DNA from: a virus | IMG/VR virus record: IMGVR_UViG_3300035670_000164 | Location: 6,356-70,355 of that record | DNA length: 64,000 bases | Reading direction: 5' to 3' (one strand) | Shown here: one piece after another, positions 4,464 to 61,378 of the stretch | Layout of the letters: each line of letters begins with the position of its first letter | Numbering within the stretch: position 1 is the stretch's first letter | Translations under genes and position numbers: made by a program | The notes under the pieces: model-generated | What the model was told of the DNA's origin: nothing | Seen by the model: only the letters and a program-made list of their open reading frames with translations | Database searches by the model: none

Positions 4464-6704
4464 ATGATAGATTTAGATGAAGTAAAAACTATAAAATTTA
4501 ATGATTGGAAGAATCCACCTAAGTTAGATGATCTAAAGAATGATTTATTATCTGCACAATCAGATCATGACAAACAAGTTGCTAAAATAAATACTTGGTT
4601 AGATAATCTAAATATTACTGGTTCAGCTAAAGTAAATAATGGAAAGAATAGAAGTAATGTTGTACCTAAACTTATTCGTAAACAAGCTGAATGGAGATAT
4701 TCAGCATTAACAGAAGCATTCTTATCTACAGAAGATTTATTTAATACTGACCCAGTTACCTTTGAAGATAGAAAAGCTGCTGTACAGAATGGATTAGTAT
4801 TGAATAATCAATTTAATACAAAACTTAATAAAACTGCTTTAGTAGATGAAGCAGTAAGAACTTTTGTAGATGAAGGAACTCTTATTGGTAGAATTGGTTG
4901 GGAATACCAAGAAGAAATAGTAGAAGAAGTTATTAATGATTATGAATTTATTCCTTCTAATGATCCAGAATATATACAAAAATTACAAGAGTTAATTCAA
5001 GGTAAACAAGATGATCCTATTAACTTTCAACAAACAGTTCCAGAAGAATTTCAACAAGCAGTAGAATTATCTCTACAAAATAATGTTCCTATTTATCCTA
5101 ATCTAATTGGTTCTCATATAGAGAAAAATGTAAAAGTTATTAAGAACCAACCTACAGTTAAAATATGTGAATATCAAGATATTATTATTGATCCTTCTTG
5201 TAGAGGAGATTTAGATAAAGCTAATTTTATTATTTATAAGTTTGAAACATCTTTATCTGAATTAAAGAAAGAAGGTAAGTATTCTAATTTAGAAGCTATT
5301 GAACCAAGTGATGCTTTACCATTACATGATGATTCATATAGGAAGGAATCTTATACATTTCAATTTAAGGATAAACCAAGACAAAAATTAACTGCTTATG
5401 AGTATTGGGGTTATTGGGATATTAATGGTGATGATTTGGTTAAGCCTATTGTTGTTACCTGGATTAATAATACTATTATTAGAATGGAAGAAAACCCATT
5501 CCCTTTTAAAAGTTTACCATTTGAAATAGCACAATACTTACCTGTAAGAAAGAATTGTTATGGTGAACCTGATGGTTCACTATTAGAAGATAACCAAAAG
5601 ATTATTGGAGCTATTACAAGAGGAATGATTGATCTTATGGGTAGAAGTGCTAATGCTCAACAAGGAATTAGTAAAGATGCTTTAGACCCAGTAAACAAAA
5701 AGAAATTTAAATCTGGTGATGATTATGAGTTTAATCCTAATAAACATCCATCAGAAGCTTTCTTTATGCACCAATATCCAGAGATTCCTAAATCTGCTGA
5801 ATATATGATTAACTTTCAAAACTTTGAAGCAGAATCTCTTACAGGAGTTAAAAGTTTTAATCAAGGTGTAAGTAGTCAATCTCTTGGTGATGTAGCTGCT
5901 GGTATTAGAGGAGCATTAGATGCTGCTAGTAAAAGAGAATTAGGAATACTTAGAAGATTAGCAGATTGGTTTATTCGTATTGGTAGAAAGTTTGTAGCAA
6001 TGAATGCTGAATGGCTTTCAGAAGAAGAAGTAATAAGAATTACTAATGAAGAGTTTGTAACCATTAGAAGAGATGATTTAGCTGGTAATATAGATATTAA
6101 ATTAACTATATCTACAGCAGAAGCAGATGAACAAAAAGCTCAAGAATTAAGTTTTATGCTTCAAACTATGGGTAATACAATGCCTCAAGATTTCAGTCAA
6201 ATGATTCTTGTAGAAATTGCTAGACTTAGAAAGATGCCTGATTTAGCTAAGAAGATTGAGAAATATGTTCCTCAACCTGATCCAATGCAACAACAAATGC
6301 AACAATTACAAATGCAATTACTACAAGCTCAAATTGCTGCTGAACAAGCTAAAGCTGCTGAGAATCAAGCACAAGCAATGTTACAACAAGCTCAAGCTCA
6401 AATGTTAGGTTATAAAGCAGAAAATACTAAAGCTCAAACAGATAAAACTAATTTAGATTTTGTAGAACAAGAATCTGGAATAGCACACCAAAGAGCTATA
6501 GAAACTGCTCAAGCACAAGCTCAAGGTAATATGCAATTAGAAGCTCAAAAGCATCAACAAGCTATTGAGAAAGATTTACTTAAACATTCTTTAGATAAAG
6601 ATTTAGAAGCTACTAAAGATGAAATGAACACTAAGAATAAAATGATGGATCATATTTCTTCTATGGAACAGATTAAAGCTAAACCTCAACCAAAAGGTAA
6701 ATAA
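4464..6704 (+). CDS. portal protein (N4 gp59-like)
   Basis: PKLIRKQAEWRYSALTE, GIRGALDAASKRELGILRRLA and a Gln-rich C-terminal barrel. Confidence 0.95.
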   Translation: MIDLDEVKTIKFNDWKNPPKLDDLKNDLLSAQSDHDKQVAKINTWLDNLNITGSAKVNNGKNRSNVVPKLIRKQAEWRYSALTEAFLSTEDLFNTDPVTFEDRKAAVQNGLVLNNQFNTKLNKTALVDEAVRTFVDEGTLIGRIGWEYQEEIVEEVINDYEFIPSNDPEYIQKLQELIQGKQDDPINFQQTVPEEFQQAVELSLQNNVPIYPNLIGSHIEKNVKVIKNQPTVKICEYQDIIIDPSCRGDLDKANFIIYKFETSLSELKKEGKYSNLEAIEPSDALPLHDDSYRKESYTFQFKDKPRQKLTAYEYWGYWDINGDDLVKPIVVTWINNTIIRMEENPFPFKSLPFEIAQYLPVRKNCYGEPDGSLLEDNQKIIGAITRGMIDLMGRSANAQQGISKDALDPVNKKKFKSGDDYEFNPNKHPSEAFFMHQYPEIPKSAEYMINFQNFEAESLTGVKSFNQGVSSQSLGDVAAGIRGALDAASKRELGILRRLADWFIRIGRKFVAMNAEWLSEEEVIRITNEEFVTIRRDDLAGNIDIKLTISTAEADEQKAQELSFMLQTMGNTMPQDFSQMILVEIARLRKMPDLAKKIEKYVPQPDPMQQQMQQLQMQLLQAQIAAEQAKAAENQAQAMLQQAQAQMLGYKAENTKAQTDKTNLDFVEQESGIAHQRAIETAQAQAQGNMQLEAQKHQQAIEKDLLKHSLDKDLEATKDEMNTKNKMMDHISSMEQIKAKPQPKGK

Positions 6705-40164: not shown

Positions 40165-40241
40165 TGGTACTCCCCATAGGATTTGAACCTACATATTACA
40201 TATTATGAGTATGCTGCATTAACCTATTATGCTAAAGGAGT
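40165..40241 (-). tRNA. tRNA with CAT anticodon (Met or Ile2), CCA encoded
   Basis: ACTCCTT...GCATA-CTCATAA-TATGT...GTAGG-TTCAAAT-CCTAT-GGGGAGT-A-CCA cloverleaf. Confidence 0.88.
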
Positions 40242-40247
40242 TTAAAT

Positions 40248-40340
40248 TGGTGGATAATAAAAGATTTAAACTTTTAACTCTTAATAAATTAATAGAAATT
40301 CTACTAATCCTAAGCGTGTTCTCAATTACACTAATTATCC
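40248..40340 (-). ncRNA. tRNA-like RNA with an extended hairpin in place of the anticodon loop
   Basis: Acceptor stem GGATAAT/ATTATCC + ACCA, D stem GTGT/ACAC, T arm AAAAG-TTTAAAT-CTTTT; no 7-nt anticodon loop. Confidence 0.65.
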
Positions 40341-57201: not shown

Positions 57202-58152
57202 TTATTTATATTTTTCTGGAATACTTACTTCTTCATAAATATTCATAGATACCAATGCTCTGTCATACTCACCACTCTGATAATTAATTTGAAATCCTTT
57301 ACAATACATTCTTCCTCTACTATCAAACCTATGAAGTAGATAAAATTGTTTATAGCTTAATAATTCATTATATGTTTCAACAAATTCTTTTTGTTGATTT
57401 ATGAATGCTTCTTTAATTAATTGCAATTCTATTTCATCTTTATCTGAGTATTTTTCTTCTTTAAATTCCTTTTCAAACTGTAAGATAAACTCATCTAAGA
57501 TAAGTGGAATAGAATTTTGAATGTTTAAAACATTCAAATTAATTGGAAGATCATGTTGATTGTATGATTTAAGAACACAATGTTCTCTAATAGTTATAAA
57601 TCCAGCATTACTATTACTTCTAATGGGTTCTGGTTTAACTATCATTGGTGGTAGAAACTTTACTCTATTAATAGCAGCAATGGTCTCTTGTTGCAGTTTA
57701 TAATTAGATTTGCAAACCACAGATTTATACTTCTTTCCCTCATATAATCTTTCTTTGAAGTACAAGTCATACAAGTCTGAATCAGCCATAACAGATATTA
57801 AATCTGCTGCAACTTTAACTCCGTCAAGAATATCTTCATACTCAAGATGTGGGGCAAACAAGGATGCAAGAACTGTAAATTCTTGCTCATGTTCTGTGAT
57901 AAGAATAATACTTAACAAATCTAAAATTATTCTATCCATATCAATTAATTCTGAATTGATACGATAGATAAGATTCTCAGCTCTATCTGCTCTGGAGAAC
58001 TTAAATTCTTGAGCTAAATAATCTGCTACTAATCTTTTACACTCAAGTAATTTATTACAATTAGTTTCAATATCTCGTTTAAGTATTTTTCTCATTTCCT
58101 TACGAGAATACTTCTCTTCCATGAGTATCTGTTCTAATTTATTTAATAACAT
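57202..58152 (-). CDS. phage RNA polymerase II subunit 1 (N4 gp15-like)
   Basis: LPPMIVKP; HRFDSRGRMYCKGFQINYQ. Confidence 0.92.
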   Translation of the reverse strand: MLLNKLEQILMEEKYSRKEMRKILKRDIETNCNKLLECKRLVADYLAQEFKFSRADRAENLIYRINSELIDMDRIILDLLSIILITEHEQEFTVLASLFAPHLEYEDILDGVKVAADLISVMADSDLYDLYFKERLYEGKKYKSVVCKSNYKLQQETIAAINRVKFLPPMIVKPEPIRSNSNAGFITIREHCVLKSYNQHDLPINLNVLNIQNSIPLILDEFILQFEKEFKEEKYSDKDEIELQLIKEAFINQQKEFVETYNELLSYKQFYLLHRFDSRGRMYCKGFQINYQSGEYDRALVSMNIYEEVSIPEKYK

Positions 58153-58660: not shown

Positions 58661-59608
58661 TTAGATTAACTCTTTTATACCTCCATTACGGTTGTAATTA
58701 GGTATATAATTAATACCTGTTAATTGGTTTAATCTTTTATACCAATTTGAATTAGCCATATTAATAACTGGAATTTGGTTTTGAATAGCTAATCTAATAG
58801 CTTGTCCAGTACCACCAGTATTAATAGTTGTACTTGTTTCTGCTCCATCTGGAGTCCAACATAGAACAAAATCAACTGGACTATTTAAATCTTCACCTAA
58901 GATTTGGTGACAGTTACGAGCCATCAACTTCTTAGCACCCTGAGATAATCTACCCCAAGCTGGGTGTAAAGATTTAGCTAAATTCATAGCTTGTTCTGAT
59001 GTTGTTACTACACCAGATTTACAATTATTAAATCCATTCCAAGGAATGAACTCAATTTTATTTGCTGTATTCCAAGCGAATGCACTATCAGCACCTTCTG
59101 CTGCACCTGAATATAATTTATATCCAGATTGTTCTAATAACTGAGCTATTTCAGTCATTACTTTCATTACAGATACAGGAGTTTTTCTCGAACCAATTCC
59201 TGAATAAGTCATACTTTTTATTTCAAACATATCCATTGTTTGAGTATCTGTTTTAGTTTTCATTTCATTTACTCCTAATTGTTGATCTAAATATTGTTTA
59301 ATAGTATCTCCATGACACCTATTAGGTTTACAGAAACAACCTAATTTAATAGGTCTTTTCTTTGCTTCCAAGACTATCTTAGTTAAATATTCTTTAACTA
59401 ATTTTTTATCTTTATTAGCTTCAAACCATATCTCATATTTATCACAAGCTTCATCTCTAGTATTTACTAAATATTCTGCTTTAGTATTTTCTAAATGTGA
59501 ATATGGATTACCTAAAGGACTACCTCTACCAATGTAGAAGTCATAATCCTCTTTGTACTTATTAACTACAGTAATCCTTTCTGTAGTATTACTTTTTCTT
59601 CTAATCAT
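58661..59608 (-). CDS. DUF4326 domain fused to a DprA/SLOG-like Rossmann domain
   Basis: YIGRGSPLGNPY...LGCFCKP..CHGD; YSGIGSRKTP...SGAAEGADSAF...ARN..QILG..VLCWT...GGTGQA. Confidence 0.85.
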   Translation of the reverse strand: MIRRKSNTTERITVVNKYKEDYDFYIGRGSPLGNPYSHLENTKAEYLVNTRDEACDKYEIWFEANKDKKLVKEYLTKIVLEAKKRPIKLGCFCKPNRCHGDTIKQYLDQQLGVNEMKTKTDTQTMDMFEIKSMTYSGIGSRKTPVSVMKVMTEIAQLLEQSGYKLYSGAAEGADSAFAWNTANKIEFIPWNGFNNCKSGVVTTSEQAMNLAKSLHPAWGRLSQGAKKLMARNCHQILGEDLNSPVDFVLCWTPDGAETSTTINTGGTGQAIRLAIQNQIPVINMANSNWYKRLNQLTGINYIPNYNRNGGIKELI

Positions 59609-59677
59609 TAATTACTCCATATAATAAATATTACATGGATAATAATTAGTAGAACCAAGATTAATAGTAGTCTTAAA

Positions 59678-59908
59678 CTATTCATAACTTACTCCTTCTT
59701 CTAATTCTGGGTATTTATCCAATCCAGAATTAATAGTTGAAAATTTCTCTAGCTCATTAAAAGTTATAGAAACTCCATTAATAACTATGGAATCTATGTT
59801 TATTAATAATTCTTCTTTATTTAGAGAAATCCAATTATAGATATTCTCTAAATCTTTAAATCGTAATTGGGTAAATCCAATTGATGAATCTAAATAACAG
59901 ATATACAT
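59678..59908 (-). CDS. hypothetical early protein
   Basis: RBS AGGAG. Confidence 0.55.
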   Translation of the reverse strand: MYICYLDSSIGFTQLRFKDLENIYNWISLNKEELLINIDSIVINGVSITFNELEKFSTINSGLDKYPELEEGVSYE

Positions 59909-59919
59909 AACACTTACTC

Positions 59920-60066
59920 CTAATTAATTTTTTGTTGTTGATAAACTTTTAGTATTTCTTTAATACTATTAAAGCTACCTAGATACTTTGTATTGCAACC
60001 CACACACAGATATGCAATAAACTTATCCCCTTTCTTGAAGATACTTAACATTTTTGTTGATACCAT
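59920..60066 (-). CDS. hypothetical early protein (48 aa)
   Basis: MVSTKMLSIFKKGDKFIAYLCVG...; RBS AGGAG; translated by hand. Confidence 0.5.
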   Translation of the reverse strand: MVSTKMLSIFKKGDKFIAYLCVGCNTKYLGSFNSIKEILKVYQQQKIN

Positions 60067-60138
60067 AATTAACTCCTAATTTATTTTTATGAAGCCAGGC
60101 AAAGCAAGGCAGTGAGAGGAGAGCAAGCAAACTAACCC

Positions 60139-60164
60139 AATACATAAAAGAAAAACCATGAGAA
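60139..60164 (-). promoter_or_regulatory. repeated early-region motif (also at 60693, 61532, and partially at 62176)
   Basis: + strand AATACATAAAAG-N9-GAGAA, each copy upstream of a - strand early ORF. Confidence 0.6.
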
Positions 60165-60239
60165 AGCAGTGGCACGATAGTACGCAGAAGTAAGACTATC
60201 TTTCTAATTTTTAAATAAACTAATATTTATTTTATTAGA

Positions 60240-60274
60240 AAAACTAAAGCACCATACCCGAAGGTATGATGCTA
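60240..60274 (-). terminator. intrinsic terminator with cUUCGg loop
   Basis: AGCATCATACC-TTCG-GGTATGGTGCT-TTAGTTTT after the 60281 ORF. Confidence 0.7.
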
Positions 60275-60280
60275 TTAGGT

Positions 60281-60601
60281 TTAAATTAAATCTTCAATAT
60301 TGTTACTAGATTTAGATATGACTAAATGATAGAAACCTGTTGAATCTTTTTCAGGGCTTTTCAACAATCTATATGTTGAAAAATCCTCTTTTGGTCCAAT
60401 CAAGTATTTATTTTTATTGTCTACATCACTTGCAGACATTTGAATAGATACTTCAACACCGTTACTGTTAAGAACAGTAATGGTTTGTTTAAATCTAGTT
60501 CCATCTTTAATAATGGAATTAGCTTTAACAATTTTGAAGCTTAAGTATTTACTGTAATCACGTTTAGTTTTAATTACAGTATTAGATTTTAAACCAGCCA
60601 T
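60281..60601 (-). CDS. hypothetical early protein
   Basis: RBS AGGAGG; has its own terminator. Confidence 0.7.
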   Translation of the reverse strand: MAGLKSNTVIKTKRDYSKYLSFKIVKANSIIKDGTRFKQTITVLNSNGVEVSIQMSASDVDNKNKYLIGPKEDFSTYRLLKSPEKDSTGFYHLVISKSSNNIEDLI

Positions 60602-60970
60602 GATACACCTCCTAAGGTATATAATTTTATGAATGCAGTTGCTTTAGCTATGAGCAACTACAAGTAATCAGGTGAGCAGGATTGCTTTACCTAATACATA
60701 AAAGAAAAACTTCGAGAACTCTAATGGTTGATAGGAACTAATAGTTCCCATAAGGAAAGAATAGTCATTGACTATTAGTTTTTAGTGTAGATTTAGTAAT
60801 TAAACAGTGTTTAATAGAGTTGATAGTATTACTATCATTTAAAATAGTATTACTACTACTAGATATAGTATTTACTACTATTTATCTATATTTACCGCAT
60901 TACTTGCAGTAATAAGAATAACTAACTACTTGATTCTATTACATATACTATTGGCATGAATATTGATGTA

Positions 60971-60999
60971 TTGACTTTTACTTAAAAATATGTTATTAT
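60971..60999 (+). promoter_or_regulatory. sigma70-type promoter, antisense to the early genes
   Basis: TTGACT-17 bp-TATTAT. Confidence 0.65.
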
Positions 61000-61005
61000 T
61001 GCGAA

Positions 61006-61378
61006 GCGTATTTACTAGCGAGCTTTACAAGTAACTAATAAATATTAATAATAGTTAGCTTCACAATAATACCACTCCTGGTTGTGTTCGGATTCCCTAA
61101 CATACCTTCATTACATTGAGTATCTATTCACTCAACACAAAGCCTTGATGTATAACCCTTAATACATAAGTAAGATGAACCATAACTGATTGGACTCTTG
61201 GCTTGTATACAAGGCTTTGAATCGTTTCGTAAATAGATACTCAACTCCAATCAGGTATGTTGTAAACTTTTAGGGTTTAGTTATGCCTGAAAGTAGTATA
61301 AAGACTATCTCTCTTGTGTATGTGTATGCTTTAAAACTTTAAGACCTAATACTCTTCGGAGTATTGGGTCTTTTTATT
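61006..61378 (+). ncRNA. candidate structured non-coding RNA (~370 nt)
   Basis: Bounded by a promoter and a terminator, no ORF of 60 aa or more, nested long-range helices over 61095-61275. Confidence 0.6.
61341..61378 (+). terminator. intrinsic terminator
   Basis: AAGACCTAATACTC-TTCG-GAGTATTGGGTCTT-TTTATT. Confidence 0.8.

Follow-up and report, generated by a model that had tools for sequence, protein, structure and literature searches.

N4-like phages are the textbook example of phages that do without the host RNA polymerase early in infection, and N4-type polymerases and their cofactors recognize single-stranded template DNA. Small RNAs bound up with the host enzyme are familiar from elsewhere: OOP of phage lambda is a short host-polymerase transcript that has its own promoter and intrinsic terminator and runs against early transcription, and 6S RNA, with a closing stem formed by its 5′ and 3′ ends and a large single-stranded central bubble, binds the sigma70 holoenzyme and templates a product RNA. 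Within the N4-like group, the Pseudomonas phage LUZ7 makes sRNA1–3, transcripts of <250 nt without coding potential and of unknown function, according to the sections that treat them (PMC9163698). In N4 itself, on the account of transcription given in PMC4496689, the early genes lie at the left genome end and are transcribed by an injected virion polymerase; the phage RNAP II takes over for the middle genes, and the host sigma70 polymerase for the late ones. Here, we describe a compact unit in the early region of an uncultured virus, IMG/VR record IMGVR_UViG_3300035670_000164 (70,355 bp, rated 95% complete). We analysed 64,000 nucleotides of it, bases 6356–70355 (hereafter "the window"; all coordinates are those of the window unless stated), and the unit occupies positions 60971–61378, on the strand opposite the early genes.

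We tentatively read the unit, at somewhat under an even chance, as a gene in its own right that encodes a non-coding RNA. The RNA would belong to a hitherto undescribed family found in a small clade of AT-rich N4-like phages, would be made by the host polymerase and would act via exposed conserved motifs. If true, the host enzyme would be used from the start in an N4-like phage, and for an RNA rather than a protein.

Anatomy of the unit

An initial annotation of this DNA had drawn a host-type promoter, an intrinsic terminator and a set of nested helices around a region without a sizeable open reading frame (ORF). Each of these elements was found again at its position, and together with the features added here they are as follows.

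60971–60999, + strand: sigma70-type promoter TTGACT-17-TATTAT with TG before the −10 (consensus scan, 10/12)
61006–61378, + strand: predicted non-coding transcript of ~370 nt (373 nt), its start inferred from the −10
61099–61261, + strand: rod formed by three nested helices (9, 13 and 10 bp) with 8×8 and 9×12 internal loops and a 62-nt apical region
61099–61107 / 61253–61261, + strand: outer helix AACATACCT/AGGTATGTT (sequence read)
61116–61128 / 61232–61244, + strand: middle helix TTGAGTATCTATT/AATAGATACTCAA (sequence read)
61138–61147 / 61210–61219, + strand: inner helix CAAAGCCTTG/CAAGGCTTTG (sequence read)
61173–61197, + strand: apical 25-mer AGATGAACCATAACTGATTGGACTC, which holds a small hairpin CCA-(8 nt)-TGG
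61291–61340, + strand: 3′ core, with GTAGTATAAA, GACTATCT (61303–61310) and a GU-rich tract ending in ...GTGTATGCTTTAA
61341–61378, + strand: intrinsic terminator with a 14-bp stem, TTCG loop and T-run (the scan lists 61341–61372, on the + strand only)

The promoter is the best of 11 promoter-like sites returned by the consensus scan of 59500–63000, where such sites as a class are not enriched (11 vs. 21.1 ± 5.2 in shuffled sequence). Terminators number four in the scanned region vs. 0.9 ± 1.0 in shuffles, that of the unit among them. The stop codon of a convergent 39-aa ORF on the − strand falls within the T-run of this terminator, which appears also to end the convergent upstream early cassette. 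Across 60971–61378 the longest ORF measures 27 aa on the + strand and 40 aa on the − strand, the latter with a TTG start.

A repeat search recovers the rod as an inverted repeat with arms at 61099–61136 and 61224–61261. Folded as a 373-nt + strand RNA, the unit reaches −102.4 kcal/mol, against −71.5 ± 5.7 for shuffled sequences (z = −5.4); since 0 of 100 shuffles folded as well, the structure is real and beyond chance. The complementary strand folds at −104.3 kcal/mol (z = −6.5), and the window sequence by itself leaves the relevant strand undecided.

Conservation among relatives

We compared the window with five IMG/VR contigs (L004, L005, L006, L007 and L019). The first four (L004–L007) were recovered with an alignment (A1) of RNAP1, a 316-aa protein encoded at 57202–58152 on the − strand of the window, and all four (4/4) carry the unit. 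L019 was found via a motif scan, and its place in the clade was confirmed by a search with a 40-aa acidic early protein (A5) that returned exactly these five contigs, with the unit in 5/5. A protein search with RNAP1 gave nine relatives, one at 62% and the others at 44–46% identity, and single-protein searches for relatives gave none. No further relatives came from metagenome contigs (alignment A1 and loop pattern), nor further family members from a genome contig collection (loop patterns). Loop and core patterns in viral contigs found just the five known contigs, and in one motif scan of viral contigs 16 of 20 stretches were unrelated coding sequence.

In all five relatives the unit has the identical place and orientation, on the strand opposite the early genes, and the same layout, i.e., a host-type promoter followed by 150–330 nt with no open frame and by a hairpin ending in a T-rich tail; the hairpin directly adjoins the stop codon of the early ORF upstream. 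The ORFs flanking it are different in every phage, including those in the position of the 39-aa ORF, which differ in each of the six phages. At the nucleotide level (blastn of the locus vs. L004–L007), the rod matches L004 at 61112–61198 (76% over 89 nt) and L007 at 61166–61197 (97%), and the stretch before the terminator (61302–61345) and the promoter (60971–60998) match as well. When 14 kb of the window, comprising the early and neighbouring middle region, were compared with the five loci, 12 matches had E < 1e-3; ten lay in ORFs (RNAP1, RNAP2, the DprA-like domain and small + strand genes) and two were the rod, and the unit is the sole non-coding sequence shared at the nucleotide level in these 14 kb. 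Because the rod matches at the nucleotide level while the flanking ORFs differ, the unit forms a conserved island within a variable region. The earlier description of a stand-alone, gene-less unit antisense to the early genes thus extends to the same place in 5/5 relatives, with conservation beyond that of the flanking genes.

Closer variants of the locus occur in DNA contigs from two other studies: contig X5 carries 61099–61288 with 1 difference in 190 nt, and contig X6 carries 61132–61282 with 2 in 151. Outside the rod the closer variants diverge more: 11 of 145 positions are changed ahead of the promoter, and 8 of 146 in the 5′ part of the unit, where there is also a 5-nt insertion. Contigs X3, X5 and X6 cover the stretch in part, so that what they leave uncovered does not count as absent, and contigs of this kind carry no information on starts, ends or strand.

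The promoter is a recurrent element of the family. A block AAAATATG-n-TAT... stands at the equivalent place in L004, L007, L006 and L019. The promoter of L005, TTGACA-17-TATAAT, matches the consensus at 12/12 positions and ranks first among 28 sites in 6.5 kb; L006 and L019 have TTGATT-18-TATGGT with TGn, and L004 and L007 have TTTACT-17-TATTAA and TTTACT-17-TATTTA, respectively, both with TGn. L005 also displays an arrangement of its own, in which two near-consensus sigma70-type promoters face each other at 4801–4829 (+, 11/12) and 4870–4842 (−, 12/12), with start points ~1 base apart and each inside the transcribed region of the other. The RNA unit would be driven by one and the next early gene by the other, possibly as an either-or switch for the host polymerase.

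The rod is found in three members (the window, L004 and L007) and in altered form in L006, in which a 19/25 variant of the 25-mer sits in its own separate hairpin and CCA/TGG reads CTA/TAG, i.e., is changed on both sides. Rod and 25-mer are absent from the units of L005 and L019. Covariation among homologues had been put forward as a check on the helices, and compensatory changes are present: the consensus fold of the three rods predicts 44 pairs, of which 9 persist despite substitutions on both sides, a count that, with three sequences of which two are close, gives qualitative support and no statistic. Specifically, the inner helix CAAAGCCTTG/CAAGGCTTTG of the window corresponds to CAAAGCCTT/AAGGCTTTG in L004 and to CAAACGTCTTA/TAAGACGTTTG in L007, the latter with at least three pairs changed on both sides relative to the window, and the middle helix TTGAGTATCTATT/AATAGATACTCAA corresponds to TTGTATTTGTATCAT/ATGATACAAACACAA in L004. 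Two finer elements of the proposed shape fare less well outside the window. The central bubble holds as an internal loop of 9×12 in the window and 7×10 in L004 but is largely base-paired in L007, as TCAAACA/TGTTTGA. Likewise, the complementarity CTGATTGGA/TCCAATCAG behind the suggested pseudoknot exists in the window (61181–61194 / 61246–61259, 14 nt, 93%; repeat search), but TCCAATCAG is absent from L004 and L007 despite their identical apical sequence, and the pseudoknot is not supported.

The 25-mer AGATGAACCATAACTGATTGGACTC itself is identical in the window, L004 and L007. It has remained unchanged while the proteins have drifted to ~44% identity (RNAP1 of L004 is ~44% identical to that of the window over its full length, and that of L007 36% identical over the 172 residues compared), which suggests that it has a partner worth finding. 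We considered a peptide encoded through the 25-mer and rejected it, as the 25-mer is unchanged while proteins are ~44% identical and its flanks change in a compensatory way; the − strand frame that crosses it is not of equal length in L004 and L007 (sequence reading). The 25-mer of the window also contains a four-codon frame (ATG, three codons, TGA; 61175–61189) without a ribosome-binding site, and at 6652–6666 (−) of L006 the start and stop of this frame are kept with all three inner codons changed; the frame is probably meaningless.

An invariant 25-mer on stems that vary across divergent phages would also be expected of a decoy RNA directed at a conserved host factor or defence, e.g., a CRISPR-repeat mimic (an RNA anti-CRISPR) or an antitoxin-RNA mimic. 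Such an RNA would be made at once by the host polymerase from the first-entering DNA, and would imitate a host RNA with the invariant loop that its stable rod presents. The host-type promoter and the location in a hypervariable early region, where the neighbour genes differ in each phage, agree with this proposal, and the end of the motif may resemble a CRISPR repeat handle. However, 185,579 species genomes yielded no array and no exact copy, in searches by exact patterns only and with the host not identified. A two-fold degenerate 24-mer for the loop gave 0 matches in these genomes, and a loop pattern with N at the variable positions gave 11 single matches, in unrelated taxa and with no similarity beyond the pattern. 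The rod is, in addition, dispensable in two family members. We regard a decoy of this kind as unlikely.

The 3′ core and its motif

Common to all members is the 3′ core, in which GACTATCT, a GU-rich stretch and GTGTA(N)GCTTTA stand directly before the terminator in 6/6 units. In L005 the copy nearest the terminator reads GTCTATCT, beside a second GACTATCT, and the cores of L005, L006, L007 and L019 hold two or three CTATC(T/C)-like copies. Every predicted fold leaves at least one CTATC(T/C)-type copy half or more unpaired (one such copy being ACTATCC), so predicted accessibility is moderate.

Elsewhere in the window, GACTATCT shows a marked preference for one orientation. There are six copies on the + strand (46122, 51367, 59372, 60194, 61303 and 62429) and one on the − strand, and 5/6 of the + strand copies fall in the 7% of the genome outside ORFs. 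The hexamer CTATCT is intergenic in 8/28 cases on the + strand vs. 1/27 on the − strand, the complement of the core motif, AGATAG(TC), is over-represented between genes on the early-sense strand, and in the relatives GACTATCT has the same orientation as in the window. At the head of the late-direction cluster, GACTATCT is followed after 18 nt by TATACT. Orientation bias, intergenic placement and promoter proximity together argue that GACTATCT is, in all likelihood, a regulatory word of these phages. Its copy within the unit was also considered as a second sigma70 −35 box and set aside, as no consistent −10 follows it in the relatives (sequence reading).

Whether the word is read in RNA is where our interpretation meets resistance. 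The complement of GACTATCT, AGATAGTC, often stands 15–47 nt upstream of TTAAAAGCATTTWATGTA, a promoter motif of the relatives (see below), so the copy in the unit may serve early-sense transcription at the DNA level instead of being an RNA seed. Nor did target searches favour pairing. The best duplex of the 25-mer in its own genome, at −19.7, is no better than those of 20 shuffled controls, which span −17.6 to −25.5. Whole RNAs set against the translation-start regions of five phages gave no target common to the phages; the top matches of that scan were mostly doubtful small ORFs, and in L004 and L006 the first early gene came to no more than z ~ −2.

Which strand, or DNA

We think it likely that + strand RNA is made. 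The host-type promoter is aligned across the family and reaches consensus in L005, and the terminator of the window is listed on the + strand only, with the two neighbouring early terminators listed on the − strand only. A phage-type early promoter before the rod on the − strand was looked for, and the candidate, TTTATACTAC, is only a poor match to the motif family.

Several observations pull the other way. The −10 elements of L004 and L007 are without the canonical final T and were not listed by the promoter scan, and in the relatives the terminator tails, being rich in T on either strand, give no indication of direction. Most directly, the rod folds better on the early-sense (−) strand in 3/3 rod-bearing phages, by 9–12 kcal/mol: energies for − vs. 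+ are −48.9/−39.7 (window), −49.9/−38.1 (L004) and −51.5/−41.0 kcal/mol (L007), with z of −6.1/−5.3, −8.0/−6.0 and −9.1/−7.2, respectively. The consensus fold follows suit (−35.5 on the − strand vs. −24.0 on the +), and about four or five positions are A·C on the + strand but G·U on the − strand. The rod may have a further role on early RNA produced by read-through, or the two RNAs may meet each other.

These observations are the substance of an alternative in which the rod does its work in early-sense RNA, or on both strands, as an RNase III-type processing or stability hairpin that insulates early cassettes. Phage-polymerase read-through of the shared terminator would then give an early RNA with a near-perfect ~45-bp hairpin; the + strand RNA, made by the host polymerase, would act on it as a cis-antisense RNA and provoke cleavage via loop–loop pairing, in the manner of lambda OOP. 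The better − strand folds (relative to their own shuffles and in the consensus), the A·C positions that become G·U, and a terminator that is bidirectional in form all point this way, and on the − strand the small hairpin of the 25-mer gains three more pairs (65–85, 66–84 and 67–83). However, no early-promoter motif (TTAAAAGCATTTWATGTA in the relatives, CTTTTATGTA in the window) lies between terminator and rod, so an early-sense RNA requires read-through. The strand bias, moreover, amounts to no more than about five positions among three sequences, of which two are closely related; an RNase III site needs no invariant 25-nt loop; and L005 and L019 keep the unit without any rod. We consider this alternative rather doubtful.

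A further set of features fits an element that works as DNA, i.e., a replication origin, cruciform or operator region close to the end of the genome, in which case the likeness to promoter and terminator would be secondary. The 32 helix pairs of the window are perfect Watson–Crick pairs, which fits DNA as well as RNA, and DNA folds are significant on both strands (z = −4.9 to −7.3). A 21-bp tandem repeat and five hairpins with 3-nt loops lie directly upstream, the GC-skew minimum and the switch in gene direction are within 1 kb, and GACTATCT behaves like a DNA regulatory motif. Set against this, A·C and G·T mismatches in the helices of L004 and L007 would weaken a cruciform on both strands, L005 and L019 are without the rod while promoter, 3′ core and terminator are present in 6/6, and the L005 promoter matches consensus at 12/12. 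A purely DNA-level role accordingly strikes us as distinctly unlikely.

Proposed mode of action

Under the reading that we prefer, a + strand regulatory RNA, the host sigma70 RNA polymerase would start at 60971–60999, read the + strand away from the next early gene and stop at the hairpin 61341–61378, which would be shared with the convergent early cassette. The RNA would be modular, with a 3′ core present in all members (one to three CUAUCU-type motifs, the GU-rich tract and the terminator) and a rod that three members share and a fourth has in altered form, and it would act via its exposed conserved sequences. In the window phage, the complement of the 3′ core, AGAUAG(UC), occurs almost only in intergenic stretches of the opposite early and middle transcripts; given this complementarity, the core could pair with these transcripts, or could compete with them or with their DNA for a factor. 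The tip of the rod would be recognized by a second, conserved partner.

A bolder version makes the RNA a decoy for the phage's own transcription machinery, in effect an RNA timer linking host and phage polymerases. Here, GACTATCT would mark the template strand upstream of the clade's early and middle promoters, and the host-made RNA would carry one to three single-stranded copies of the same word. As it accumulates, the RNA would soak up a phage single-strand-binding cofactor or the phage polymerase, and early and middle transcription would be turned down as the host polymerase makes more of it. We offer this version as speculation and judge it very unlikely. On any reading, promoter, rod, loop, motif array and terminator make the unit a small, defined and testable object for phage RNA biology.

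Genome setting and neighbouring early cassettes

The window has a GC content of 28.3%. It encodes a 4026-aa ORF, the size of a virion RNA polymerase, and its − strand gene block ends with a split T7-like RNA polymerase. RNAP1 has matches in 420 phage records, of which the best among those listed are N4-like phages at ~24–31% identity, mostly annotated as RNA polymerase or RNAP1. The large ORF, the split polymerase and the RNAP1 matches together indicate that the window belongs to a distant, uncultured and AT-rich N4-like phage.

The early and middle genes run on the − strand from ~62.1 kb downwards, and a + strand gene cluster begins at 62446 and continues past the end of the record. The switch in gene direction and the cumulative GC-skew minimum both fall at ~61.9–62.2 kb, and from this position we infer that the physical left genome end is probably near there, which would put the RNA unit ~1 kb inside it. 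No terminal repeat was found in the 70,355-bp record. In the gap between the divergent gene blocks lies a 33-bp tandem repeat of 2.1 copies (62338–62406), close to the GC-skew minimum (61900–62200), and the two probably mark the region of the genome ends or of a terminal repeat collapsed in assembly.

An early-promoter-like motif, CTTTTATGTA, occurs four times on the − strand of the early region (62179–62187, 61535–61543, 60696–60704 and 60142–60150), its 9-base core has just one further copy in the entire 64-kb window, and the copies carry TTTTTCTTTTATGTATTGG (four occurrences). Every early copy precedes a small ORF with a ribosome-binding site, and the 116-aa and 106-aa early ORFs have hairpin terminators downstream (consensus scan, listed on the − strand only). 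These motif-led ORFs look like phage early cassettes, and the RNA unit sits between the second and the third of them in opposite orientation. In L004–L007 the motif TTAAAAGCATTTWATGTA(A/G)T(A/G)G is found at 20 or more sites, with a short hairpin next and an ORF start ~45 nt on. The TTAAAAGCATTTWATGTA and CTTTTATGTA motifs do not resemble the 3-nt-loop hairpin promoters of N4, and a phage polymerase probably uses them as early or middle promoters in this clade. The immediate neighbours of the unit are two.

61377–61496, − strand: convergent early ORF of 39 aa, second cassette, with an AGGAG ribosome-binding site and the early-promoter-like motif at 61535–61543
60734–60913, no strand assigned: region upstream of the unit promoter with five hairpins (6–7-bp stems, 3-nt loops) within 180 nt

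The second of these lies between the unit promoter and the next early cassette and is overlapped by the 21-bp tandem repeat (60823–60880, 2.7 copies). It may consist of operators, of hairpin promoters for an N4-type polymerase or of origin-like DNA.

Farther away, the − strand encodes a 315-aa early or middle protein (58661–59608) with an N-terminal DUF4326 and a weak DprA-like C-terminal part, and this C-terminal part is a separate 176-aa protein in L004. A second tRNA is called by Rfam at 40251–40340 (−; 39.8 bits), beside tRNA-Met at 40165–40241, and was not reported by ARAGORN.

Comparison with described RNAs

The units of the window, L004 and L006 had no blastn match among 50,697 phage records. 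The Rfam comparison that the initial annotation had called for, 6S (RF00013) included, matched no family: at the gathering score the whole window gave no 6S and no family for the unit, at E ≤ 10 the region 60600–61800 gave 8 sub-threshold matches, none of them 6S and all chance-level hairpins, and at E ≤ 1 four relatives gave no 6S match and likewise nothing beyond chance-level hairpins. On these searches, no cultured phage appears to carry the unit and no Rfam family to fit it. In the literature covered, such a unit in N4-like phages is not described; the supplementary start-site lists for LUZ7, which were outside that scope, could hold an early-region antisense start.

The likeness to 6S RNA, on which the annotation had built its suggestion of a polymerase decoy, lies in a rod-like fold with internal loops and in the link to the host sigma70 polymerase. 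A 6S-like RNA that binds the host sigma70 holoenzyme as an open-promoter mimic would make sense for an RNA made by this polymerase in a phage that later depends on it. However, the analogy fails on structure as well as on the covariance models. The closing stem of 6S is formed from the transcript ends, whereas the rod here is internal, spanning ~nt 94–256 of 373; the open bubble is unconserved; and the rod is missing in L005 and L019. We hold a 6S-type function to be exceedingly improbable.

The LUZ7 sRNA1–3 are alike in being short, non-coding and intergenic in an N4-like phage, but they lie between orf69 and orf70 and belong to late infection, as the sections on them report (PMC9163698), whereas the present unit is in the early region, antisense, and has a host-type promoter. 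By blastn against the same phage records, the unit and these RNAs share no sequence similarity. With lambda OOP, the unit shares logic only, i.e., its own promoter, a terminator and an orientation against early transcription. OOP overlaps the 3′ end of a defined gene, but the unit overlaps only the terminator hairpin of its neighbour ORF, and at 160–370 nt it contains conserved motifs, which would be superfluous in a purely cis-antisense RNA.

RNA anti-CRISPRs, which are solitary repeat units (PMC10651486), are likewise small phage RNAs with a conserved short sequence that would mimic a host RNA; they differ in that no CRISPR array or repeat with the sequence of the unit was found in the 185,579 species genomes (exact patterns). 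Finally, the early units of the N4 virion RNA polymerase share with our unit the left-end early region of an N4-like genome. As laid out in the account of PMC4496689, those units are read from small DNA hairpins in the early direction, whereas the unit described here is reversed and led by a sigma70-type promoter.

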